A DNA stretch of 19,427 nt from UHGV virus genome UHGV-0123532. One strand, 5' to 3'. Both the position numbers and the translations under genes were made by a program. This document shows, piece after piece, positions 1,137-15,153 of this stretch. Source of the DNA: a virus. Positions within the stretch are counted from its first letter, which is position 1; every line of letters starts with the position of its first letter. Below the pieces are notes generated by a model that saw only the letters and a list, made by a program, of their open reading frames with translations, made no database searches and was not told where the DNA came from.

Positions 1137-2246
1137 TCACTCTGTTTCTGCTATCCATTCCGGGATTTTTGCCTCAAGCTCAAGCTGCGTGGTAAAGCCG
1201 CTGTTATCGATGGTGTGCTCGGCTTTTGCAATAATCCAGTCCTGATTATCAATCTCGCTTTTAAATCCTGTTACCGTGCCATGCATTTCGGGGTAGAGTT
1301 CTGCACGACCACATGCCAGCGTGATGGAGAATGATGCGGCTCCGCGTTGTAGCTGCTGCCACTTTGCCGCCGCTGCGCGTCTTGCTGCCTGCTCGTTCTG
1401 ATAAGTCTTGCGTAACACAAACACATTGCCTTCCGCGCCTTCCATATAATCACCTTCGCGGCTGCTGCTTTTCTCCTTTTTGGGTTTTGGCGGTTTGCGG
1501 TGTTTCACGCTGACTTTTTTCTTTTTCCCGTAATTAAGATCAAGCCAGTAAGCGCGTACCCCCGTATACGCTTCGCGGTCAGCAATGCGGAACTGATGGC
1601 GATCGCCACTGCTGCGCGTGATGGCGAACGATGGCAACGGCTGGCCCTGTGCGTTCACGCCACCGCCTGGCATAATGAATAACAGATTACCGCTTTTTAC
1701 CGTGGTGATTGCGCCCAGCATTTCCGCCATGCGCGTAAGGAAGGACATGTCGCTTTCTTCGGTCTGGTCGGCGTGGTCGATTTCGATATCCATCAGCATT
1801 TCGCTGATTTGCGGTTTCAGACCATACCGATGAGCGATGGCGGATACCACACGCTCAACGGTCACATCATGCCAGGACACCTCACGTTTAACGTTAAATT
1901 CATCCCGAAAATCTGCGCTTCTGGCTGAAACAGTCAGCCTGTCCGGCGGTCCTTCGTGAGCGATTTCATCAACAATGTAAGTGCCTTTTTCTGTCAGCGG
2001 TTCTCCTTTCCAGCCAATGAGAACCGTCAGGCGCGCGCCCCGTGGCGGTAGCTGCAACTGACCATCCGCATCATCCAGCGTGATGGTGAGCTGGTCCGCG
2101 TCAAATCCCCGGTTGTCGGTCAGTGACAGGCTCATCAGGCGCTCTGCCACGCCTGACAGCGTTTTACCCTCCGCGAGAATATCAAAATCCGGCATTTTCA
2201 CGGGGTCTGTGCCCTGACTGAGCAATTGCATGGTGGTATCGGTCAT
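1137..2246 (-). CDS. D: P2 gpD-like tail protein (late gene D), about 370 aa
   Basis: Long ORF from track; start chosen at internal ATG 2244-2246 (MTDTTMQLL...) with GGAGGG RBS; identity by resemblance to remembered P2 gpD and by synteny with ogr. Confidence 0.8.
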   Translation of the reverse strand: MTDTTMQLLSQGTDPVKMPDFDILAEGKTLSGVAERLMSLSLTDNRGFDADQLTITLDDADGQLQLPPRGARLTVLIGWKGEPLTEKGTYIVDEIAHEGPPDRLTVSARSADFRDEFNVKREVSWHDVTVERVVSAIAHRYGLKPQISEMLMDIEIDHADQTEESDMSFLTRMAEMLGAITTVKSGNLLFIMPGGGVNAQGQPLPSFAITRSSGDRHQFRIADREAYTGVRAYWLDLNYGKKKKVSVKHRKPPKPKKEKSSSREGDYMEGAEGNVFVLRKTYQNEQAARRAAAAKWQQLQRGAASFSITLACGRAELYPEMHGTVTGFKSEIDNQDWIIAKAEHTIDNSGFTTQLELEAKIPEWIAETE

Positions 2247-2403
2247 CTGTTCCCTCCCTGTGCGGCATGGTCGCATGTGCGTGCGGAGGGGGTTACTGCT
2301 TTTTGTTGTCGCCGGATCGGGAGAACGGCACAGGGGTGAGATTACGCGCGTGGTGGGTGATGATTGTTGCCGAATCATTTAACGGATACAAGGGGCTAAA
2401 GCT

Positions 2404-3291
2404 ATGAGTGAAACTCGTTTTCATGGTGCCCGTGTTACGGAAAATACCGACCTGGTAACAGCGATTAACGATGTTGATTCCAGCGTTATCGGTATCGTGG
2501 CAACGGCGGATGATGCGGACGCGAAGCTGTTCCCGCTGAACAAGCCCACACTGCTGACCCGCGTCAATGACGTGCTGGGAAAATGCAGGACAACGGGGAC
2601 GCTTTATCGTGCGCTTAAGGCCATCGCAGACCAGGTGAGCACAAAGGTGATCGTCGTTCGCGTGGCTGAACACAAAGAAGAAGACGGAAAGACGCAGGAT
2701 CAACTGGTTATCGGTGGTTCTGAATCTGACGGCAGCTATACGGGGATGTATGCGCTGCTTGTTGCAGAGCAGGATGAAAGCATCGGATACCGTCCGCGTA
2801 TTCTGGCCGCGCCGGAGCTGGACACGGAGGCGGTGACAAAATCCCTGTGCGTGATTGCGGGTAAACTGCGCGCGTTTGTGTATGCCTCATGTCACGGCTG
2901 TAACACGATGGCTGAGGTGATTACCTACCGCCAGAAATTCAACGAACGTGAGGTGATGCTCTTATGGCCGGACTTCATCGCCTACAACCCGAAAAGTGGC
3001 AAAAACGAAACGTTCCCCGCGCCTGCCTATGCGTGCGGCCTTCGTGCGTACATTGACCATGAGCAGGGATGGCACAAATCACTGTCCAACGTTCCGGTTA
3101 AAAATGTGCTGGGGATGTCCAGGCATGTGTTCTGGTCGTTGCAGGCCGAAGACAGCGATGCCAACAGCCTCAACAACAAAGAAATCACGACCATTATTCG
3201 TCGCAACGGGTTCCGCTTCTGGGGCAACCGCACACCGGAAACGAACGCCTACATCTTTGAGGTGTATGCCGGAACATCGGCCAGCGTCTGA
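2404..3291 (+). pseudogene. FI: tail sheath protein FI, C-terminally truncated fragment (295 aa of about 396)
   Basis: Clear collinear similarity to P2 FI (TFPLNKP, LRAF-Y, WPDF-A, EQGWHK-LSNV, LIRR-GFRFWGNRT) ending near P2 residue 300; on the opposite strand to D/L/M/N and converging with the L-like ORF. Confidence 0.75.
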
Positions 3292-3639: not shown

Positions 3640-4440
3640 TTAACCGCGCTTCGCCTTCTGCGACGCGGTGGTTTTTCGTGTTGCAGGCTTCTGCGTTGTC
3701 TTTTTACTTTTGCTGCTTTCGTCCTGCGTCTGCTGTGCGCTGGCGTCTTCTGGTGCGGCTGCGGAATCGGCTTTTTTCAGGGCGCGGGAAAGGGTTGCAA
3801 TCTCGCGTTTCACACCTGCGTTCGGGTTCAGGTGCATCGCTTCGCGCAGCAGCTTCAGTGATGAGGCCATGTTGTCTGCATCGGTCAGGCCACGACGGGC
3901 AAAGGCACACGCCTTGCATAATTTGGCGCGCACTTCGTCCGGCATGTCCTGGTTGGCGACAATTTCCCAAAGTGTGTCCAGTGGTTCGATAAAGGCGGAT
4001 AAATCCGCGTCGGCATCCGTCCCGGCCTGCGTCAGTACCGGGTTGCAGATTTCTTCGGTCAGTACCGTGGCAGCAGTACGGCCAAAGTTATCCGGCATGA
4101 TGAGGTTGTGACGGACCACATATGCACCAATACGCAGCGCCAGCGGAAGATCGCCGCAGTCAATCGCCCACACCATCAGCGTGGCAATTACTTCGTCCTG
4201 TTGCCCGCCGTCAGTCTCCAGCGTTCCCTCAATCCAGCCGGAAAAGTCCGGCAACAACTCTTTTTTGATGGCGGCTTTCGCGCTTCTGGCCTGTACGCCC
4301 TTTAGCCTGGCCTGTGCCAGACGCAGACGATACAGCACCTCTTCATGCGCGGTACGCGCGGCGTGGTCCACACCTTCATTCGCCCGGCCTGCGCGCTGTG
4401 CCATCACGTTCTGCCAGTGTTGTTGTGCAGGAGTAATCAT
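3640..4440 (-). CDS. M: terminase small (endonuclease) subunit, gpM-like
   Basis: 266-aa ORF with GGAGAG RBS; similar to remembered P2 gpM (PAQ-H, DMPDEVRAKL, basic Lys/Arg-rich tail); synteny N-M. Confidence 0.8.
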   Translation of the reverse strand: MITPAQQHWQNVMAQRAGRANEGVDHAARTAHEEVLYRLRLAQARLKGVQARSAKAAIKKELLPDFSGWIEGTLETDGGQQDEVIATLMVWAIDCGDLPLALRIGAYVVRHNLIMPDNFGRTAATVLTEEICNPVLTQAGTDADADLSAFIEPLDTLWEIVANQDMPDEVRAKLCKACAFARRGLTDADNMASSLKLLREAMHLNPNAGVKREIATLSRALKKADSAAAPEDASAQQTQDESSKSKKTTQKPATRKTTASQKAKRG

Positions 4441-5561: not shown

Positions 5562-5938
5562 TCAGAAGTCAGCCAGCTGGTCGGAGGCTGCGCCCGTTGC
5601 GGTGAAGCGGTTCTGCGGATCGCCGTCCTGTGTGCGCAGTTTTTCCTTCAATGCTGTCAGCTCTGTGGTCAGTGACGTGATTTTCTGGCGGTCCTGCTGA
5701 TGGCGGGTTCCGTAATATCTTCCGTACTCAGCGCGGTGACATCGCCCATTGCGGAAAATTCGCTTGACGGGCATGGCGAGAGATAGTGCTCAACGTTCAC
5801 GCGGGCAGCGTAAACATCCGGGTTGAAGTTCTCGGCGGCTTCACGCAGATGTACCTGGCTGATTTCGCGGCCATCAACAGTTGATCCGGAGACAGCCACG
5901 CGAAACTTTTTGCGGGATGTCTTTTTTTCATTAGCCAT
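5562..5938 (-). pseudogene. O: capsid scaffold gpO-like, internally deleted and frameshifted
   Basis: N-terminal piece (MANEKKTSRKKFRVAVSGSTVDGREISQVHLREAAENFNPDVYAARVNVEHY..GDV) in one frame and C-terminal piece (TELTALKEKL...ATGAASDQLADF) in another; total locus about 377 bp against about 855 bp for P2 O. Confidence 0.6.
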
Positions 5939-6092
5939 AGTTTTTGCCCCTCTGACTGGTTCTTCAGTCATGATGGCAAAGCGTAACAGGCTGATAAAAA
6001 GGGCTTTTGTTGTAAGAAAACGGCCAGAACAGGGGGTTAAGGAGAACGGTTTCGCGCGCGGGTAATCTTCCTGTAATTACTCAGGGGGAGCA
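5939..6092. promoter_or_regulatory. divergent late-promoter region between O and P
   Basis: By synteny with P2 (divergent P and O operon promoters); no convincing TGT-N12-ACA Ogr dyad found by eye, so assigned by position only. Confidence 0.35.
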
Positions 6093-7844
6093 ATGATTCA
6101 GGACGCTTTTGTGCGCCAGCGTGCGCGGCAACTTTACTGGCAGGGTTATCCGCCCGCAGAAATATCACGTCTGATGGGAATAAACCCGAACACGATTTAT
6201 GCGTGGAAAAAACGCGACCAGTGGGATGAAACGCCACCCGTGCAGCGTGTCACGCAGTCCATCGATGCGCGCCTCATCCAGCTTACTGAAAAACAGAATA
6301 AAACAGGCGGTGACTTTAAGGAAATTGACCTGCTGACCCGGCAGCTTAAAAAAATGCATGATGGCCAGCCGGATGCGACGGCCACAGGAAAGAAAGGCCG
6401 GGCGAAAAAACTCAAAAATCATTTCACGCCGGAACAGATTGCCGCACTGCGGGAAAAAATCATCAGCAGGCTGGAGTGGCATCAGCGGGGCTGGTTTGAC
6501 TCCCTGACCCTTTGCAGGGAAGCCGGGATACGTAACAGGATGATCCTGAAATCCCGACAGATTGGCGCGACCTGGTATTTTGCACAGGAAGCACTGCTGA
6601 TGGCGCTGCGTGACGATGTGGCGCAACCTTACCAGCGTAACCAGATTTTTTTGTCTGCGTCGCGTCGTCAGGCGTTCCAGTTTAAAAGCATTATTCAGAA
6701 GGCTGCGGCTGAAGTTGATGTGGAGCTGAAAGGGGGCGATAAAATCATCCTCTCCAACGGCGCAGAGCTGCATTTTCTCGGCACTTCTGCTGCGTCGGCG
6801 CAGTCCTATACGGGCAATTTTTATTTTGATGAATTTTTCTGGGTCAGTCGCTTTGCTGAACTGCGCAAGGTGGCTGGCGCTATGGCAACCCTCAGCGGAT
6901 TGCGGCGCACCTACTTCTCCACGCCATCCACCGAAACGCACGAAGCATACGCCTACTGGAACGGCGACCGCTGGAACGAGAAAAAGGCCACACATAAACG
7001 CCAGCGTTTTTCTGTGGACTGGAAAACACTGCATAACGGGCTTATCTGCCCTGACCGGACGTGGCGGCAAATTGTCACGCTGGAAGATGTGGTTAATCAC
7101 GGCTGGAAACACACCGATATCGACGAAATTCGTGATGAAAACACCGAAGACGAGTTCCTCAATCTCTATATGTGTGAGTTTGTCCGCGAAGGGGAATCGG
7201 CATTTAACCTGAATATCCTGATTGGCTGCGGTGTTGACGGATACGACGACTGGAAAGACTGGAAACCTTTTGCTCCCCGCCCGATGGGGAATCGTCCGGT
7301 ATGGATTGGGTATGACGCAAACGGCAGCAGTGGCAACGGCGACAGCGGCGCTGTGTCCGTGGTGGTTCCTCCGGCTGTTCCTGGTGGCCGTTTTCGAACG
7401 GTGGAGACGCGACGCGTTCAGGGGCTGGAGTTTGAAGAACAGGCCAGAGTCATTGAAGATTTCACGTATCGCTACAACGTGGAACACATCGGCATTGATG
7501 TGACGGGCGGGAACGGGGAGGCTGTTTATCAGATAGTGAAACGGTTTTTCCCTGCCGCTATTCCGTACACCTTCACGCTGTCATCAAAACGGTCGCTTGT
7601 ACTGAAAATGCTGCAAATAATGCGTGCCGGGCGGTGGGAATACGATCGCGCCGAACGCGAGCTGGTCGCGGCCTTTAACGCCGTGCGTAAGGTGAAAACA
7701 CCGGGCGGCTTTATCACTTACGAAACGGACCGCGCGAGGGGGATCAGCCACGGCGACCTTGCGTGGGCAACCATGCTTGCTGTCATTAACGAACCAATTG
7801 GCGGCGAAGGAGAAAACGAGCGTTTCACGGTTATGGAGTTCTGA
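6093..7844 (+). CDS. P: terminase large (ATPase) subunit, gpP-like
   Basis: 583-aa ORF, length and position match P2 gpP; stop overlaps the Q start (TGATG at 7842-7846). Confidence 0.85.
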   Translation: MIQDAFVRQRARQLYWQGYPPAEISRLMGINPNTIYAWKKRDQWDETPPVQRVTQSIDARLIQLTEKQNKTGGDFKEIDLLTRQLKKMHDGQPDATATGKKGRAKKLKNHFTPEQIAALREKIISRLEWHQRGWFDSLTLCREAGIRNRMILKSRQIGATWYFAQEALLMALRDDVAQPYQRNQIFLSASRRQAFQFKSIIQKAAAEVDVELKGGDKIILSNGAELHFLGTSAASAQSYTGNFYFDEFFWVSRFAELRKVAGAMATLSGLRRTYFSTPSTETHEAYAYWNGDRWNEKKATHKRQRFSVDWKTLHNGLICPDRTWRQIVTLEDVVNHGWKHTDIDEIRDENTEDEFLNLYMCEFVREGESAFNLNILIGCGVDGYDDWKDWKPFAPRPMGNRPVWIGYDANGSSGNGDSGAVSVVVPPAVPGGRFRTVETRRVQGLEFEEQARVIEDFTYRYNVEHIGIDVTGGNGEAVYQIVKRFFPAAIPYTFTLSSKRSLVLKMLQIMRAGRWEYDRAERELVAAFNAVRKVKTPGGFITYETDRARGISHGDLAWATMLAVINEPIGGEGENERFTVMEF

Positions 7845-8890
7845 TGAGCAGAAAAAATAAAAAAGTGCGCATGAGTTCACGCATTGATCTCGCTGATGCA
7901 CTCAGGAAAGAATCGTCGCTCAGTGCATTCACTTTTGATGGTCCTTATCGCCTGACCGGGCATGATTTGCTGGACAATATGTACTGTGCTGATAACGGGC
8001 GGTGGTATGAAACCCCGGTGGACTGGTACGGTCTGGCAAGAGCCGCCCGGCAAACGTCCTGGCATCAGTCTGCGCTTTACTTTAAGCGCAATGTATTGCT
8101 CGGTTGCTACATCCCGCACCCGCTGCTTTCCCGGCAGGATTTCTCGGCACTGGCGCTGGACTGGTTTGTGTTCGGTAACGCATTCCTTGAGCTTCGAAGC
8201 AATATGCTCGGCGAACCGCTTAAATTACGGCACGCCCTGGCGAAATACATACGACGCGGAAGCGATCTTGAATCATGGTGGTATGTGCAGGATGGCAAGG
8301 ATGCGTTCCAGTTTCGCCCTGGCAAAGTGTGCCACCTGATGAATCCTGACATTAACCAGGAAATCTACGGCATGCCGGAATATCTCGGCGCATTACTCTC
8401 GGCCAGCCTGTCTCATTCGGCGGACATGTTCAGAAAACTGTATTACGACAACGGATCCCACGCCGGGTGCATCATCTACATCGGTGCAGCGCAGGTAAAC
8501 CGCGAAAGCATGGACTCTCTGAAAGAAACGCTACAGGGTGCACGTGGTGGCGGTGCGTTTAAAAACGTGCTCATTCATGCGCCCAACGGGGGCAAAGAGG
8601 GGGTGCAAATTTTGCCGTTCCAGCAGATCACCGCAAAGGATGAGTTCATGAATGTTAAGGCGGCATCCCGTGATGATGTGCTGGCTGCGCACCGCGTTCC
8701 GCCGCAACTAATGGGGGCGATGCCGGGTGAAAAAAGTGCGTTTGGTGATGTGGAGAAGGCCGCGCGGGTTTACGCAATTAACGAGCTGATGCCCATCATG
8801 GAGGCCATGAAGCACATCAATGACTGGCTTGGCGAAGAGGTGATCCGCTTTAACCCTTACGCACTGTTAGATACCCAGCTCACATCCTGA
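7844..8890 (+). CDS. Q: portal (capsid vertex) protein, gpQ-like
   Basis: 348-aa ORF translationally coupled to P; length and position match P2 gpQ. Confidence 0.85.
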   Translation: MSRKNKKVRMSSRIDLADALRKESSLSAFTFDGPYRLTGHDLLDNMYCADNGRWYETPVDWYGLARAARQTSWHQSALYFKRNVLLGCYIPHPLLSRQDFSALALDWFVFGNAFLELRSNMLGEPLKLRHALAKYIRRGSDLESWWYVQDGKDAFQFRPGKVCHLMNPDINQEIYGMPEYLGALLSASLSHSADMFRKLYYDNGSHAGCIIYIGAAQVNRESMDSLKETLQGARGGGAFKNVLIHAPNGGKEGVQILPFQQITAKDEFMNVKAASRDDVLAAHRVPPQLMGAMPGEKSAFGDVEKAARVYAINELMPIMEAMKHINDWLGEEVIRFNPYALLDTQLTS

Positions 8891-9345: not shown

Positions 9346-9581
9346 CGAACGGAGTGCTTATTTATAGAAAAATTGAGCCTATGTATACGACGTTGCTTAT
9401 AAATACATCCCTGACTGTTATGTGAAAATATGCAAAGAAAATTACATGCTATGGAGATGAGAGTTATAACGACCTTTTCTACTTATTTGTAAAAGAGGTC
9501 GTTATGTAAAAGTTAAATTATTTTTTACTCTTGATATGTGTAAAAAATATAGCTTTGATGTTTATATCCTATTAGAATATA

Positions 9582-11279
9582 TTATTTATCCTCTTTAATG
9601 ATTTTGTTATAGTCAAAATCCCAAATTTTTCTGTCAATGCCGTTTGTTGGTGTAACCCGGTAGAATAAGGATCGTAATCCATTGTAAAAATACTGGAGAG
9701 ATTTCTGATTTTCTGGTTTGTCTAACCAGTTTCTTGTAATCATTCTAAAGAATTCAATATGCTGATTGAATATTTTCTTATTTAATTTTCTTCTTAAACC
9801 GGATGTAGACTCATGGTTGTCTTTTCTTTTCTGAATTTCAGTTTCAATTGATTGTAATTGAGGACGTATCTTGAGTAAGTATAACTCTTTCGAAAAACCA
9901 TTGTTAATTATATCCTGATTTTCCCAGAAGGAAGAGTCGTCGGTATTATAAAGGTGCTCACAATGCTCAAATATCAATTGTTCTGGAGCTTTTTCACCCG
10001 GCAGTGATATAATTCCTCTCTGATCCTCAGGGCTGTGATCTCCATCAAGAATACAAATTGATTTTAACGAGGTTTCCTTAAGATGAGAATCATTAAAAAT
10101 AGTTTTTAAATTGTCTGCACCAATGAAACAATCAATTAAGTGAAATGAATTACTAACTATAGCAAAATTTGGATATTTGCTTATCCAATAACCAAGTATT
10201 TCATTAAATAAAAAGCGAGCTTCTTCATCTTCCGTGAAAACTGGTATCTTGTTCCTTGTGTATATCTCATCCTTTGTTTGTGTTTTCAGATACATTGTTA
10301 TTTTTAATATATCAGGATTATCCAAAAGCAGAGCCTTTGTAATATTGTTAATTAGATAGACAACATGGTATTTTTTATGAAAAGCATATTCTAGCAATGT
10401 CAGACTGTGCGTTGTGAAAAATACTTGAATCTTATAATCTTTTGCGTATTGATAAATTTTATCTAATAATCTTATCTGTAAAGAAGGATGTAAAGTGGCA
10501 TCAAATTCATCTATTAACAGAATGCTTTCTTTTTGATCAGTGGATTGAATAAGTGATTCAAAATAATACCTAAGGCTAACTAATGCCTTGATTATAATGA
10601 ATATATTGTCTTCCCCGGATGATATGGTATTAGAATCAATTGCTGGGTTATCGGTATCAAATAATGGGCCAGCTTTAAAATCTCCGATATTGTTTGATTC
10701 TATATTTATAATATTAATGCCCAAAAGTTCATTATATATTTTCGATATATAACCAACATACTCTTCTGGTAGGTTTAACGGAATTTTTGTAAGGGCGTCG
10801 TCTTTAGTTTCACCAATTGGGAATAGTCGCGATAATCCAAGATATAAAACTGGTTTAGCTGGAAGTGATTGTTTTTCTTTTCCGCGTGGGTATACTGGTT
10901 TGATAGCATACCGTTGCGCTTCGTCTGGATTTTTTGAGTTGTGCTTTCTGAAGTCTAGTGTGCTATGATCCAAATAGTTAATAGAAAATAACACACCTTT
11001 TGTTCCCTCTGCCGGATCGGTGTAATTTTTTGATTCCCTAACAATTGCTTCCATTTTGGGGTTGGCTATTTTGTTTATAGATTTTATAACTCTAACACAA
11101 TTACTATTTGAATAATTTTGTGATCGAGATGGTGGCATTTGGAAACCATTGCTAATTAAATGAAGCAATGTTGTCTTACATGTCCCATTGGTTCCTGATA
11201 TTATATTGATGTCTTCATTGAATGAGAAGTCAATATCTATCAGTTTCTTAAATTTTTTAAAACTAATTTCTTTAATCAT
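9582..11279 (-). CDS. OLD-family ABC-type ATPase with C-terminal Toprim-like nuclease region (565 aa)
   Basis: N-terminal P-loop SGTNGTCKTTLL; Walker B/D-loop LLIDEFDATLHP and H-loop FFTTHS typical of AAA_15/AAA_21 OLD-like ATPases; downstream conserved acidic motifs VFTEDEE and ILDGDHS spaced like the Toprim Glu and DxD; AGGA RBS; AT-rich. Confidence 0.6.
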   Translation of the reverse strand: MIKEISFKKFKKLIDIDFSFNEDINIISGTNGTCKTTLLHLISNGFQMPPSRSQNYSNSNCVRVIKSINKIANPKMEAIVRESKNYTDPAEGTKGVLFSINYLDHSTLDFRKHNSKNPDEAQRYAIKPVYPRGKEKQSLPAKPVLYLGLSRLFPIGETKDDALTKIPLNLPEEYVGYISKIYNELLGINIINIESNNIGDFKAGPLFDTDNPAIDSNTISSGEDNIFIIIKALVSLRYYFESLIQSTDQKESILLIDEFDATLHPSLQIRLLDKIYQYAKDYKIQVFFTTHSLTLLEYAFHKKYHVVYLINNITKALLLDNPDILKITMYLKTQTKDEIYTRNKIPVFTEDEEARFLFNEILGYWISKYPNFAIVSNSFHLIDCFIGADNLKTIFNDSHLKETSLKSICILDGDHSPEDQRGIISLPGEKAPEQLIFEHCEHLYNTDDSSFWENQDIINNGFSKELYLLKIRPQLQSIETEIQKRKDNHESTSGLRRKLNKKIFNQHIEFFRMITRNWLDKPENQKSLQYFYNGLRSLFYRVTPTNGIDRKIWDFDYNKIIKEDK

Positions 11280-11296
11280 CTATATCATCCTTAAAT

Positions 11297-12142
11297 TTAA
11301 ATGTCAGGGATTTTTATACCATGATTATAAATGATAATTTCTAGACCTTTTTTCTTATCTTGTGCAGTATAATTAAGCGTATAATCAGTCATATTGAATT
11401 CATGATATATGCTTTTTATTTCAGGCACATTGTCATAAGACACAACCCAAGGTAGTTGAATTTCCCGTAGTGTATTAGCGATTTTTACATGATCATCATG
11501 TTTATAAAAATTTCTATATAACTCTGCTCCTTTAACATAATAAGGTGGATCAAGATATATTAGACTATTTTGGGGTAGCAATGCTTTTTGGTGTAGCAGA
11601 AAATCTACAGCATCAAAATTCGATACGTAAATTTTCTCCTTATATGCACCAATTAGTTCAATCCTTTTAATTAACTCTTTTTTGTTGAATCTTGCATCTA
11701 ACTTCCATGGTCCTTTTTGTTCTTTCCCTCCAATAACGCCAGCCTTAAGTATTCCTGAACGGTTTGTTCTATTTAAAAAGAAAGTAGATAATGCGACTTC
11801 AAGCATACTATATTTATCATTGTTTAGGAGTATCTCCTTTTGAGTATGCCAATTTTCAATAGTCACAGGAACTTCATCAATCATTTCACATAACAGATCG
11901 TTATGATTAACCACTGCAAACCAAAAAGAATAAAGGGCAGGATCAATATCATTTATGAAGATATTTTCAACAAGACCGTTAAGGAGCAAACCTAATGCTA
12001 CACCGGCTCCACCTGCATAAGGTTCAGCATAACATCCACCAATGAGATCATTGTTGCGGAGTATTTGTTCAATATGTGGCAAGAATTTTGCCTTACCTCC
12101 CGGATAACGAAGAGGGGTTCTAAAATGAGAAGGCTTTGTCAT
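11297..12142 (-). CDS. Dam-like (D12 class) N6-adenine DNA methyltransferase (281 aa)
   Basis: LRYPGGK N-terminal motif, AdoMet motif EPYAGGAGV, catalytic DPPY; stop lies 17 bp upstream of the ATPase start, same strand. Confidence 0.85.
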   Translation of the reverse strand: MTKPSHFRTPLRYPGGKAKFLPHIEQILRNNDLIGGCYAEPYAGGAGVALGLLLNGLVENIFINDIDPALYSFWFAVVNHNDLLCEMIDEVPVTIENWHTQKEILLNNDKYSMLEVALSTFFLNRTNRSGILKAGVIGGKEQKGPWKLDARFNKKELIKRIELIGAYKEKIYVSNFDAVDFLLHQKALLPQNSLIYLDPPYYVKGAELYRNFYKHDDHVKIANTLREIQLPWVVSYDNVPEIKSIYHEFNMTDYTLNYTAQDKKKGLEIIIYNHGIKIPDI

Positions 12143-12229
12143 CCACGATTTTCTCAGTAAAAAATAAACATAATCTTAACATGGCACTTGAGTTTTCCCG
12201 ATAAAAAACATCGTCGCCGTCCATAGATA

Positions 12230-12247
12230 TTTGCATAGTTATGCAAA
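12230..12247 (-). promoter_or_regulatory. inverted repeat TTTGCATA-gt-TATGCAAA in the leader of the methyltransferase operon
   Basis: Perfect 8-bp arms seen directly; located between the predicted promoter and the MTase start, an operator-like or 5' UTR hairpin position. Confidence 0.4.
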
Positions 12248-12275
12248 AAATCCAGTTTTCAATGAATTAAGGGGA

Positions 12276-12305
12276 ATTATATCAATTGCATTCTATTCAA
12301 CACAA
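12276..12305 (-). promoter_or_regulatory. candidate sigma70 promoter for the MTase-OLD operon
   Basis: Minus strand TTGTGT-N18-TATAAT (perfect -10 at 12276-12281, -35 at 12300-12305), immediately after the gene A stop. Confidence 0.35.
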
Positions 12306-12327
12306 TATTCGGTTAGCGATTCACATC

Positions 12328-15153
12328 TCATCCCTCATGATGGAAAAGGCATATCCAACTTTGTAATTGTTTTTTCTCATCATCATTTTGATTACTAAAG
12401 TGCTGTTTGCCTCTCTTTTGGAGCAAAGTAGCCTTGCGGCGGGCGCGTTCAGTGGTTTCATTGATTCTTTGTGCGTGCTCTGCGTCACGGATGGCGCGCA
12501 GCATGTCAGAAAGCACGGTAACGGGGGTTTTCATGGTGTTCTGGTCCTGCTGAAGTGTGGATGCCAGACGTGCGGCGGCTTCGGGGTCTGATGCCCCCAG
12601 TTGTTCCAGATAGCTGGCGACCGGGTTATGACGGATCTCTGTGCTGCTTACGCCGTGATTACGGCTCAGGCGCTGCCAGAGCTGCGTAATTCGGCTGGCC
12701 GGGCGGGTATCCGGTTTGCGTACAATTTCAAATCCCTGCGGTGCAATGATGCTGCCGTCAACGTACAGGCTGCCGCCCCGTAACAGGTGCTGCATCTGCT
12801 GTTCACCGATATGCAGGCCGAGAGATTCGGCAGATTCCCGCCATTCTTTAGCGAGTAATTCGTGGTTATCAGGCAAAGGCCGCTGCTGTTTGCGGCTCTG
12901 TGTCCAGCTCTGCATTTCATCACTGCTGTTTTTTGCCTGTTTGTCACGAAGCGAACGCATCAGCGCCCGGCGTTCGTGCCGTTTCAGTGAGCGCATCCAT
13001 TCGTTCACTTCAACGCCGTCAGGAAGCTGCGGCCACGGTGCTGGCCGTTCTTTCGACTGTTCTGTCCCGCTGTTGCCTGTTTCCTGTACACGGGGACAGT
13101 TATTGCCACGAGTCCAAGGGGCGGCAGGGCCGCCCTGAAGGTCAAAACCATTTTCGCGGGCGCTGTCTTCCGCTTCCGGTTTGCGTCTTACCAGCTTCCA
13201 GTTATCCGGATGCGTGCACACACGGGAGGATTCCCCGATGAGTGGTGACCAGATCCCGTAAATCTGTACGCTCTGTTCGCCGTAATCGTTCAGCTCATCG
13301 GCGAGGTCGTAGGCGGTGCGAATCAGGTAGTCTTTGCGTGGAACAAGTACGCCGCCCTGTTTCTCAATGTAGGTGGCAAAACATCCGGCATCAGCGGCAG
13401 CAAGAACCGCATCCATTGCGTCATCCTTCAGCCGTTGCGGGCCTTCCGGGTTGCGTGCCATCTGGCTGGCAAGGCGACGCAGTTCACGCCACACCTGACG
13501 GGAGGGGATGCCAAAGAACTGGAACTGGCGGACCCGGTGAAGGCGCGCCCAGCCAATGGCGCGTTCCACGCTCTCGGTCATTGATTTTCCGGTTTCGTGG
13601 TCAACGCGTGGTTTGCCTGTTTTCGGGTCGATGCCATCCACGGCGCGGCTGTCCAGGTTTTTTCCGATGTAGGTGGCGATGTAGCTGGTTGGCGTGCCTT
13701 TTGAGCCGTCGACATACTCCGCCTTAAAGCGCGGAGTAATATCATCGCCCAGCTCGTGACGATCTTCCTGAATGGCAATATCGCGGGTGTGGGACACAAT
13801 GGTGTCGATTTCTTCCGGATGAGCAAAGACCATCATATGCCAGTGCACGGTGCCGTCATGGTGAGGCTCCACCGTGCGGATGCCATACCAGCGCAGGCCG
13901 TCGCGGTTCAGTTTCTTGCGGACCGCCGCAAAAAACGTGTTAACCAGGTAATCGCTGGAGTCGCGCATGGTGGCCCCGTTCCATTTGGGATTCGGATGAC
14001 CGTTCTCTGTTGTAGCGTGGTATTTTGACGGGCAGGTGACAGTCAGAAACACCGCTTTGTCGCCACGGGCTTCGGCCAGAAGTTCCAGCCCCTTCATGGT
14101 GGCCATCATTTCTGCCTTACGGTGAACCGGGTTACTTACTCCCGCGTAATACACTGTCTCGAGATCAATCGTGAACCCGTCTTCGTTTTCCAGCATGAAA
14201 CTTTTCAGGAAATCGCGTGTTTTCTCGCGCTGTGCGCGAAACTCGCTTAACGCGTCCTGGCTCAGATAGGGCGATGTTTTTCTGGAAACCAGACAGGCGG
14301 CGCGGAGTTGTTCTTCTCTCCACTCGCAACGTAACAGCCACAGTTTGCGTTTCCACCATTCCGCACAGGTCAGGCGAAGGATTGCGCCCGGCAGCAGCTC
14401 CGTGTCCGGTTCGTTCCTCCGGTCTTTGTCTGTTGTCAGTGCGTCATAATGTGGAGGCATGGCGTGCAGGTGTAACGCCATGCGGGCCAGCATCTGATAC
14501 GCCTTCAGCGTTACATCCATGGTCAGTTCGCCATCGGTCGCGCCAAAGCCATCGCAGAGTTTTTCGAAGGTGCTGCTGAACATCGCCGCCGTCATGGTGG
14601 CCAGCGTCTGTATCTGGTGTTTGTTGAGCTGCGGCAGGTAAAGCAAATCGTCCAGGCGTTCGCGTCCGGCAAGGGAGCGATAACCCTGTGTCAGCCAGCG
14701 GTGATCGGTGCGCTCCAGACGTTCGAATATTTTGCGCAGGTTTCCGCGCGCGTAGCGTTCAGCCTGCCAGCTCTTTTTGCCTTTCTGACGATCGGCTTCC
14801 TGTTTTTTGCGCAGGAAGGAGAGGTGGCGAATAAGCGGATCGCGCAGATAGGACGGCAGCAGGCGCAGCGAGGCCATGGCTTCATCCACCGCACCGCGTG
14901 CCTGTTTTCTGGCGTCTCCTGCCAGTGTGATGGTTTTGTCCTGTTTTTCCTGTGCGTCCAGGCTTTTATTAATCAGGTTGCCCAGCGGCGTTGCGGAGAA
15001 CGCCGCATCAGCCATTTCCTGGCGGCGCTCGTTCTCTACCCGGTAGGCATCCAGCCAGGAGGAAAGCGCGGATTCAGGAGCGGGGATCCCCGTTCCTTCA
15101 CGCCCCACTGCGTGGCGCGGTTGTTGCCAGTCCCTGATGTACTCTGCCGTCAT
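12328..15153 (-). CDS. A: replication initiation endonuclease, gpA-like (rolling-circle HUH type), 941 aa
   Basis: HUH-type motif TVHWHMMVF and paired tyrosines YIATYIGK characteristic of P2 A-family proteins; position after the early operon. Confidence 0.85.
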   Translation of the reverse strand: MTAEYIRDWQQPRHAVGREGTGIPAPESALSSWLDAYRVENERRQEMADAAFSATPLGNLINKSLDAQEKQDKTITLAGDARKQARGAVDEAMASLRLLPSYLRDPLIRHLSFLRKKQEADRQKGKKSWQAERYARGNLRKIFERLERTDHRWLTQGYRSLAGRERLDDLLYLPQLNKHQIQTLATMTAAMFSSTFEKLCDGFGATDGELTMDVTLKAYQMLARMALHLHAMPPHYDALTTDKDRRNEPDTELLPGAILRLTCAEWWKRKLWLLRCEWREEQLRAACLVSRKTSPYLSQDALSEFRAQREKTRDFLKSFMLENEDGFTIDLETVYYAGVSNPVHRKAEMMATMKGLELLAEARGDKAVFLTVTCPSKYHATTENGHPNPKWNGATMRDSSDYLVNTFFAAVRKKLNRDGLRWYGIRTVEPHHDGTVHWHMMVFAHPEEIDTIVSHTRDIAIQEDRHELGDDITPRFKAEYVDGSKGTPTSYIATYIGKNLDSRAVDGIDPKTGKPRVDHETGKSMTESVERAIGWARLHRVRQFQFFGIPSRQVWRELRRLASQMARNPEGPQRLKDDAMDAVLAAADAGCFATYIEKQGGVLVPRKDYLIRTAYDLADELNDYGEQSVQIYGIWSPLIGESSRVCTHPDNWKLVRRKPEAEDSARENGFDLQGGPAAPWTRGNNCPRVQETGNSGTEQSKERPAPWPQLPDGVEVNEWMRSLKRHERRALMRSLRDKQAKNSSDEMQSWTQSRKQQRPLPDNHELLAKEWRESAESLGLHIGEQQMQHLLRGGSLYVDGSIIAPQGFEIVRKPDTRPASRITQLWQRLSRNHGVSSTEIRHNPVASYLEQLGASDPEAAARLASTLQQDQNTMKTPVTVLSDMLRAIRDAEHAQRINETTERARRKATLLQKRGKQHFSNQNDDEKKQLQSWICLFHHEG

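Follow-up and report, generated by a model that had tools for sequence, protein, structure and literature searches.

The PD-lambda-5 system of ECOR7 consists of two genes, described as 'ParB/HEPN, methyltransferase' (components A and B), and broad-range phage defence has been proven for it (Vassallo et al. 2022; PMC9519451). The in vivo activity of its methylase is such that a delta-mrr host is needed, and phage defence was shown for the ECOR7 A+B system only (PMC9519451). The OLD nucleases, first found more than 50 years ago at the P2 locus, are divided by gene context into solitary enzymes (class 1), those found with a UvrD-like helicase (class 2), those found with a retron reverse transcriptase plus ncRNA (class 3) and the split AriA/AriB proteins (class 4); how a stand-alone OLD protein discriminates self from non-self is still open (PMC10568477). 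In the current study, the viral genome UHGV-0123532, a stretch of 19,427 nucleotides (hereafter the window) derived from a P2-like prophage of Escherichia coli, was found to carry a gene pair in which a methylase of the PD-lambda-5 type is followed by an OLD-like ATPase-Toprim protein. The pair represents what appears to be a new, effector-swapped configuration of the PD-lambda-5 family, and may add a further context class to the OLD-like nucleases.

Both genes are located on the minus strand. The first (11297..12142, 281 amino acids (aa)) is predicted to encode a D12-class (alpha) N6-adenine methylase of the PD-lambda-5_B clade, and the second (9582..11279, 565 aa) an OLD-like ABC-ATPase-Toprim protein, referred to below as the nuclease. 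The spacer between them (11280..11296, minus-strand ATTTAAGGATGATATAG, read from the sequence) is 17 bp long and contains a ribosome-binding site, AAGGA, that precedes the ATG of the nuclease gene by 8-9 nt. This layout had been described in a first-pass annotation, made from the nucleotide sequence, and the coordinates of the open reading frames (ORFs) agreed with it exactly. The short spacer with its ribosome-binding site suggests that the two genes are co-transcribed, methylase first. An identical 17-bp gap from methylase to ATPase gene was found in loci of Pantoea and Pluralibacter (L008/L047).

The methylase matched Pfam PF02086 (MethyltransfD12) over its full length (aa 13-253, E=1e-20), in line with the D12 class to which it had first been assigned. 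Among the PADLOC models it matched PD-Lambda-5_B (PDLC04018; E=8.7e-122, 404 bits, profile positions 3-277 of 291) and MTase_II (PDLC03358; E=9e-108), and its 404 bits exceeded the 380 bits that the methylase of a genuine A+B locus obtained on PD-Lambda-5_B. Three motifs were read from the translation on the minus strand, i.e. the N-terminal LRYPGGK (aa 11-17, 12092..12112), the S-adenosylmethionine-binding motif I EPYAGGAGV (aa 40-48, 11999..12025) and the catalytic motif IV DPPY (aa 198-201, 11540..11551). The first and the last were invariant in one alignment of homologues (A3). Across 16 diverse homologues, P10-K17, E40, G44, G45 and D198-Y201 were unchanged. Strong conservation was also observed in the alignment of homologues for aa 114-151, which probably correspond to the hairpin with which Dam-family enzymes recognise DNA, and suggests that a single methylation motif is shared within the clade. 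The specificity of the methylase could not be deduced from 7m6b (67 bits), the nearest D12 structure that has been solved, which was too distant. A non-specific methylase like M.EcoGII, which could explain the need of PD-lambda-5 for a delta-mrr host, was also considered, and was ruled out because M.EcoGII is a beta-class enzyme and not of the D12 class.

The 565-aa protein begins with an ABC ATPase (aa 1 to about 310); this is followed by a Toprim domain (about 340-430) and, at the C terminus, by a bundle of helices (about 430-565). In the ATPase half, matches to Pfam AAA_15 (E=3e-12), AAA_21 (E=1e-10) and SMC_N were obtained. Its Walker A motif GTNGTCKT (aa 29-36, minus strand 11172..11195) has a cysteine in the place of the usual glycine before the lysine. 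It is followed on the same strand by the Walker B/D-loop segment SILLIDEFDATLHP (aa 252-265, 10485..10526), which includes IDEFDATLHP (aa 256-265), and by the H-loop TTHS (aa 289-292, 10404..10415). Two acidic Toprim motifs lie further downstream, also on the minus strand, namely the glutamate motif FTEDEE (aa 348-353, 10221..10238) and the DxD motif LDGDHS (aa 411-416, 10032..10049). All seven motifs quoted in the first-pass annotation for the two proteins were thus present in the translations. An alignment of 32 homologues of the nuclease showed invariance of G29, N31, G32, C34 and K35 in Walker A, of S220, G222 and E223 in a signature-like motif, of D257, E258, D260 and H264 in the Walker B/D-loop segment, of T289, H291 and S292 in the H-loop, and of F348, E350, D351, E353, D412, G413 and D414 in the Toprim motifs. 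The invariant catalytic residues of methylase and nuclease indicate that both enzymatic activities are under selection. In a larger set of 96 methylase-linked ATPases, the residue before the Walker A lysine was C in 64, G in 11, S in 9, M in 3, Q and D in 2 each and A in 1, and no motif was found in 4. Such unusual variation of the P-loop might mean that the ATPase domain works as a slow ATP-binding switch and not as a fast motor.

The Toprim half proved harder to detect by sequence models. In the C-terminal 270 aa, where a Pfam search had been proposed as a check, no Toprim model was matched at E<=10, the only match being a chance one to DUF1351, so that the profile search bore out the first-pass prediction for the methylase (MethyltransfD12) and the ATPase (AAA_15, AAA_21) and failed to do so for Toprim. 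Neither Pfam nor PADLOC had an Old or Toprim sequence model that matched this half, the PADLOC 'Old' model was absent among the best 25 matches of the whole protein, and an alignment of the family profile with PDB sequences was confined to the ATPase motifs, with none in the Toprim half. No restriction endonuclease model was present among the best 25 PADLOC matches either, and none matched the C-terminal half. The HEC-04 profile, however, aligned to aa 249-444 (profile positions 230-408 of 494) with E=1.3e-16 for the full protein and E=4e-7 for the C-terminal half alone. The AlphaFold model of the full-length protein (predicted local distance difference test 79) had its best structural matches in the retron-Eco8 OLD effector (4e-11), GajA (3e-9) and Thermus OLD (1e-8). 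Foldseek matches of the ATPase were OLD, GajA, PtuA, Rad50 and SMC heads, and the best globular structural matches of the C-terminal model were Toprim nucleases, the predicted fold having FTEDEE on its first strand and helix. Structure prediction thus places a Toprim fold in the C-terminal half, and the OLD-like ATPase-Toprim architecture recognised from the motifs is borne out by both the AAA_15/AAA_21 matches and these structural matches. Since no Pfam model was matched, the Toprim assignment rests on the HEC-04 profile, the structure prediction and the conserved acidic residues, and a C-terminal Toprim nuclease domain with E..DxD is supported by these models. In its predicted architecture and fold the 565-aa protein is OLD-like, while failing the OLD Toprim sequence-model tests.

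For full-length homologues of the nuclease (36-77% identity), more than 1,300 clusters of 90% identity reached E<=0.001 within the set of scored candidates, and 442 clusters of 50% identity reached E<=1e-30. A scan for such homologues, with one genome per species, gave 80 loci from Proteobacteria, Firmicutes, Actinobacteria, Spirochaetes, Fusobacteria, Planctomycetes, Deferribacteres and a methanogen. At 10 of these the contig ended before the neighbour was visible, making them uninformative. A methylase of the PD-lambda-5_B clade was present within 5 kb of the nuclease in 69 of the other 70, and the single exception was a shortened ATPase fragment without methylase. In 63 of the 69 linked loci the genes were adjacent, either co-directional in both orders (53 with the ATPase first; 6 with the methylase first, as in the window) or on opposite strands, convergent or divergent (4); the remaining 6 were not adjacent. 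Look-ups in Desulfosporosinus and Pectobacterium showed the same pair. As the homologues cover a range of 36-77% identity, this adjacency is not an artefact of one recently spread element, and it was the outcome expected by the first-pass annotation if the two genes belong together. A functionally coupled module of methylase and nuclease is strongly supported by these gene neighbourhoods.

The same annotation had named as an alternative two independent cargo genes, i.e. an orphan phage Dam and a stand-alone class-1-like OLD. Such a Dam would protect the phage genome from host restriction. Phages do often carry orphan Dam-like methylases, P2 Old is itself a stand-alone gene of the same hotspot, and 15 of 15 more distant Dam-like viral methylases were found without either of the two known partners. 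Yet the co-occurrence in 69 of 70 informative loci, in different phyla and in all gene orders, effectively refutes this explanation, and the 17-bp gap with its ribosome-binding site and the asymmetric decay of the two genes (see below) also speak against it. The viral contigs gave a similar result. When the methylase was at least 35% identical to that of the window (n=65), its neighbour was an ATPase-Toprim gene in 33 cases, PD-lambda-5_A in 24 and neither in 8, so that 57 of 65 methylases of this clade adjoined one of two partner families. Independent carriage of the two genes is thus considered very improbable.

Partner-less methylases on viral contigs were found at L117, L133, L149, L153, L155 and L156. 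The large ORFs beside the 8 partner-less viral methylases (377-798 aa at the six loci named) had no PADLOC match; these may be a third type of exchangeable effector, or the methylases may have been orphaned.

Further pairs of this kind were detected in E. coli on an integrative and conjugative element (L007), near an e14-like integrase at icd (L091) and on an integrase island (L092). At least three further E. coli ATPase-methylase pairs are thus located on other mobile elements; they are highly divergent, their ATPases scoring about 85 bits or less against that of the window, and none is annotated as a defence system. An island of the KSC64/042/JJ1887 type appears to account for most of 119 distant methylase hits. 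In Rhizobium and Pseudorhizobium (L043, 1-9000, and L044) the ATPase-Toprim gene lies within a larger array, together with genes for a PD-lambda-5_B-like methylase of 337 aa, a HerA/mad8-like ATPase of 710 aa, an unknown protein of 532 aa and an AbiTii-like protein. From its gene content, this array is a putative composite, MADS-like or HerA-capture-like arrangement built on a PD-lambda-5_B-like methylase.

When the partners of the methylase were pooled over all loci, 85 loci had the ATPase only, 26 had PD-lambda-5_A only and 18 had both, as three-gene loci in every gene order. In three of the six non-adjacent genome loci mentioned above, the gene between ATPase and methylase was PD-lambda-5_A (up to 893 bits). 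The three-gene loci of Pantoea and Pluralibacter have a methylase-then-ATPase core with the 17-bp gap, and their ATPase is 60% identical to that of the window. Below 90% identity, the nearest neighbour of the window methylase was an A-linked methylase (60% identical), and the mean identity of methylases was 0.45 within a partner class vs 0.42 between classes, indicating that A-linked and ATPase-linked methylases interleave. The divergence of ATPase and methylase was only moderately correlated (r = 0.41-0.51), and some methylases that were identical or 80% identical were paired with ATPases that were just 24-27% identical to each other. PADLOC itself has 25 hidden Markov models (HMMs) for the A component and 2 for B. 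These comparisons suggest that the methylase is a conserved 'anchor' whose effector modules are exchanged rapidly.

Genuine PD-lambda-5, with component A (501 aa, 558 bits on PDLC03998) and a methylase of 294 aa, was found at the same hotspot, between gpA and the portal gene, in E. coli MSI001, NCTC9008 and O169:H41, where it spans 2,460 bp, while the coordinates published for ECOR7 give 2,461 bp. A second A+B variant was present in a lambdoid prophage of O121 strains. In the window, no A component was detected: tblastn with 45 PD-lambda-5_A proteins gave chance hits only and no gene remnant, and none of the 25 PD-Lambda-5_A HMMs was among the best 25 PADLOC matches of the nuclease or matched its C-terminal half. 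By its predicted gene content, the pair is therefore outside PD-lambda-5 as this is defined. The first-pass annotation had not recognised it as a named system, and no paper on a pair of OLD/Toprim nuclease and Dam-type methylase was found in the full-text literature, although REBASE and Krishnan et al. 2020 were outside its coverage and earlier notice is possible. That statement holds for the pair but not for the methylase, which with 404 bits belongs to the B family of a named system.

The three-gene loci raise the question whether the window carries a reduced remnant of a PD-lambda-5_A, methylase and ATPase-Toprim system, partly or wholly non-functional and kept as an addictive pair. The 18 three-gene loci, the decaying state of the host prophage and the position of PD-lambda-5_A immediately upstream in L008/L047, the loci outside E. 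coli that are closest to the window and share its order and gap, would all be in keeping with this. However, 85 of the 129 partnered loci, a majority, consist of ATPase and methylase without A; they occur in different phyla and on several independent E. coli mobile elements. Moreover, both ORFs of the window are intact, the locus has 98-100% DNA identity over 15 E. coli genomes, and the window has no trace of an A gene. A remnant is therefore regarded as improbable.

The reading that we prefer, with a probability of roughly one half, is that the two genes constitute one methylation-coupled, ATP-dependent restriction-modification-like anti-phage module. The D12 methylase, transcribed first, would methylate adenines at target sites of host and prophage DNA. 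The 565-aa protein would be the restriction component, in which an ABC-ATPase switch is combined with a two-metal Toprim nuclease, and would attack incoming DNA that does not have the methyl mark, while the methylase would keep self DNA, or the nuclease itself, safe. Target discrimination may be supplied by the methylase or its mark, as by Mod in Type III restriction-modification, with the effector as an exchangeable executioner, since a single methylase clade serves two unrelated effector families as well as several strongly divergent ATPase subfamilies and since aa 114-151 are conserved. The pair presumably has an anti-phage function, given the homology of its methylase to validated PD-lambda-5 and of its nuclease to HEC-04 and OLD. 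DNA would be the probable substrate of the nuclease, its cleavage would probably be sensitive to methylation, and the methylase would presumably serve as the specificity subunit.

Among the loci with both genes, both were intact in 96, the nuclease was broken and the methylase intact in 7, and the reverse was found in none ('broken' being a shortened or frameshifted nuclease, scored by an ORF-length test). A nuclease that does harm when the methylase is missing would be expected to leave such a pattern.

Several points weigh against a methylation-coupled module. The 7:0 asymmetry of decay is marginal (p ~0.06) when the 2:1 ratio of gene lengths is allowed for. In the P-loop of the nuclease the glycine is swapped for cysteine. 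The validated relatives HEC-04/IbfA, PARIS and the retron-Eco8 effector act by abortive infection triggered by phage proteins, with no reading of methylation, and the substrate of PARIS AriB is tRNA and not DNA. Divergent ATPases on identical methylases are hard to square with a nuclease that has a matched sequence specificity of its own. PD-lambda-5_A is also present in 18 loci, and the ATPase may thus be an accessory of a core formed by A and B. Finally, both methylation-sensitive cleavage and phage protection by the pair are predictions.

The main alternative, which we consider possible though less likely, is a nuclease that is guarded by the methylase and brings about abortive infection, as in PrrC-EcoprrI or a toxin-antitoxin system. 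The nuclease would be held latent by the methylase protein, by methylation or by the supply of S-adenosylmethionine, and would be set free by a phage factor able to inhibit the methylase, deplete S-adenosylmethionine or mimic DNA. The freed nuclease would then destroy the nucleic acid (DNA or tRNA) of host and phage. The nearest validated ATPase-Toprim relatives (HEC-04, IbfA, PARIS and retron-Eco8) are abortive-infection effectors. HEC-04 is toxic on induction, and its defence requires the Walker A lysine and the Toprim E/D/D residues (Payne et al. 2024; 10.1101/2024.01.29.577857). OLD-ABC+TOPRIM modules have also been called 'backup suicidal effectors' of methylation-based systems (PMC12839542). 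The obligate linkage and the 7:0 decay would suit the role of an antidote equally well, and the presence of very different effectors on identical methylases is easily understood if effectors just sense the methylase. On the other hand, a separate restriction enzyme that could be guarded is missing from the two-gene form. The methylase shows strict invariance of its catalytic motifs, for which a mere protein antitoxin would have no need, and the methylase clade is conserved, including the putative DNA-recognition region, as for an enzyme whose mark matters.

A more far-reaching version of the restriction-modification-like module is put forward tentatively, at odds that we place somewhat short of even. 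The pair would then belong to a fifth, methylase-linked OLD class and its nuclease would be the first Toprim restriction enzyme, while the methylase would be both self-marker and specificity or licensing subunit, a 'socket' for OLD-like executioners, ParB/HEPN executioners or both. If this were true, PD-lambda-5 and the pair would be two faces of one plug-and-play restriction-modification architecture in prophages, integrative and conjugative elements and islands of many phyla. We know of no Toprim restriction enzyme.

The position of the pair agrees with the first-pass annotation, which had placed it in the hotspot of P2 where old and tin are found, between gene A and the cos/Q region. On one flank is the replication endonuclease gene gpA (12328..15153, minus strand) and on the other the portal gene gpQ (7844..8890, plus strand), and methylase and nuclease are the only two genes in the hotspot of the window. 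This site corresponds to 'P2 defence hotspot #1' as described by Vassallo et al. (PMC9519451) and by Rousset et al., and its known cargo includes old, tin and PARIS-type systems, with PD-lambda-5 in other strains. The composition profile showed a low-GC cargo island at 9500..12200, with a guanine-plus-cytosine (GC) content of 30-34% across about 9500-12000 vs 52-59% in the flanking phage genes. The window allele of the pair was found in 15 of 5,426 complete E. coli genomes, with locus DNA 98-100% identical; the annotation in these 15 genomes is always just 'AAA family ATPase' and 'DNA adenine methylase'.

Upstream of the methylase gene, the 185 bp between gpA and methylase (12143..12327, minus strand) are presumed to contain the promoter, a role that is inferred. 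A perfect palindrome with 8-nt arms, TTTGCATA-GT-TATGCAAA, is located here at 12230-12247, between gpA and the methylase ATG, and a minus-strand TATAAT was seen by eye upstream of it. The palindrome could be an operator of the cassette, although no gene for a controller (C) protein was present with it. A scan of the island for consensus promoters and terminators gave results no better than shuffled sequence, such a scan being uninformative in DNA of 30% GC. Beyond the nuclease gene, a hairpin with 17-nt arms (88% complementary) is located at 9466..9505, 77-116 nt past the stop codon, and is followed by two more AT-rich inverted repeats at 9506-9549. These elements lie at the GC boundary of the island and may be a terminator, the junction of cargo insertion, or both.

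Strain AR_0013, in which the prophage adjoins yecA/tyrP, matched the window from position 3267 on with 100% identity over two aligned pieces. Unlike the defence pair, which is intact, the prophage backbone of the window is degraded between 1137 and 5971. A tail gene resembling gpD (1137-2378, minus strand) abuts a shortened tail-sheath fragment (2404-3291, plus strand), which is followed almost directly by the terminase small subunit gene gpM (3640-4440, minus strand). In comparison with AR_0013, a deletion of about 460 bp has reduced the capsid scaffold gpO (5669-5971) to 100 aa. The lysis genes are absent, as are most of the tail genes. The window prophage is thus cryptic, with its cargo retained. 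The portal gene of AR_0013 (L001 10445-11491, corresponding to 7844-8890 of the window) is a RefSeq pseudogene with an internal stop; that of the window is an uninterrupted ORF of 348 aa.

The results recast PD-lambda-5 as one configuration of a modular methylase family with exchangeable effectors. In the samples examined, the ATPase-type configuration was at least as common as the published A+B one, and it is overlooked by current annotation rules, which call for PD-Lambda-5_A together with B. In E. coli, at least four further forms of it, divergent in sequence, are carried by different mobile elements. With an OLD-like family tied to an adenine methylase, methylation status becomes a simple and testable answer, for at least one branch of OLD, to how self is told from non-self. 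Should the nuclease be methylation-sensitive, restriction enzymology would gain Toprim as a catalytic fold and the ABC ATPase as a motor, both of them new. The system is widespread, compact and experimentally tractable.

Compared with the OLD family, the window protein shares the N-terminal ABC ATPase with inserts and the C-terminal Toprim domain with E..DxD, its best full-length structural matches are in that family, and the founding member, old, comes from the same P2 hotspot. It differs in having no sequence-model match to OLD Toprim domains and in the context of a Dam-like methylase, which is outside all four context-defined classes (P2 Old/Thermus OLD, GajA, retron-Eco8 and PARIS). No helicase, no reverse transcriptase or ncRNA and no split Toprim gene was present in the window, and membership in P2 Old class 1, Gabija, PARIS and the retron effector family was rejected in each case by gene context. 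For Gabija, the hotspot of the window has no GajB UvrD-like helicase, and GajA profile matches were limited to the ATPase motifs. HEC-04 is the closest defence-family profile for the nuclease and the sole one to reach the Toprim half, and HEC-04 and IbfA are likewise fused ATPase-Toprim proteins of similar size. They are, however, single-gene systems (IbfA, of IncI plasmids, acting by abortive infection), whereas the window nuclease family is essentially never found without the methylase.

The genes present, a methylase with intact catalytic motifs and a predicted Toprim nuclease gene 17 bp downstream, are arranged as in a restriction-modification system of Type II/III-like form. By analogy, Type III (and Type I) systems are similar in having an ATP-dependent nuclease subunit with a partner adenine methylase for discrimination, in a two-gene operon. 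Their nucleases are of the superfamily 2 helicase-PD-(D/E)xK type, in contrast to the ABC-ATPase-Toprim type of the window, and Mod of Type III is a beta-class enzyme, whereas the window methylase is small, alpha-class and Dam-like. PrrC-EcoprrI and RloC also have an ABC-type NTPase fused to a nuclease and tied genetically to a methylase-containing system, but PrrC is a HEPN anticodon nuclease inside a complete Type Ic restriction-modification system, while the window has a solitary methylase and a Toprim domain. Cooperation of OLD and methylase was speculated upon in a study of P. aeruginosa, where the genes tested, PA1939 and PA2735, were independent.

The closest likeness is to PD-lambda-5 itself. 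The window methylase is of the same clade and 43-53% identical to genuine A+B methylases, and both systems are compact two-gene prophage cassettes of the same P2 hotspot. The difference is in the partner, an ABC-ATPase-Toprim protein in the window and an unrelated ParB/HEPN protein in PD-lambda-5, and a PADLOC-type rule that needs both A and B would miss the window locus. By comparison of its predicted proteins, the pair is an effector-swapped relative of PD-lambda-5.

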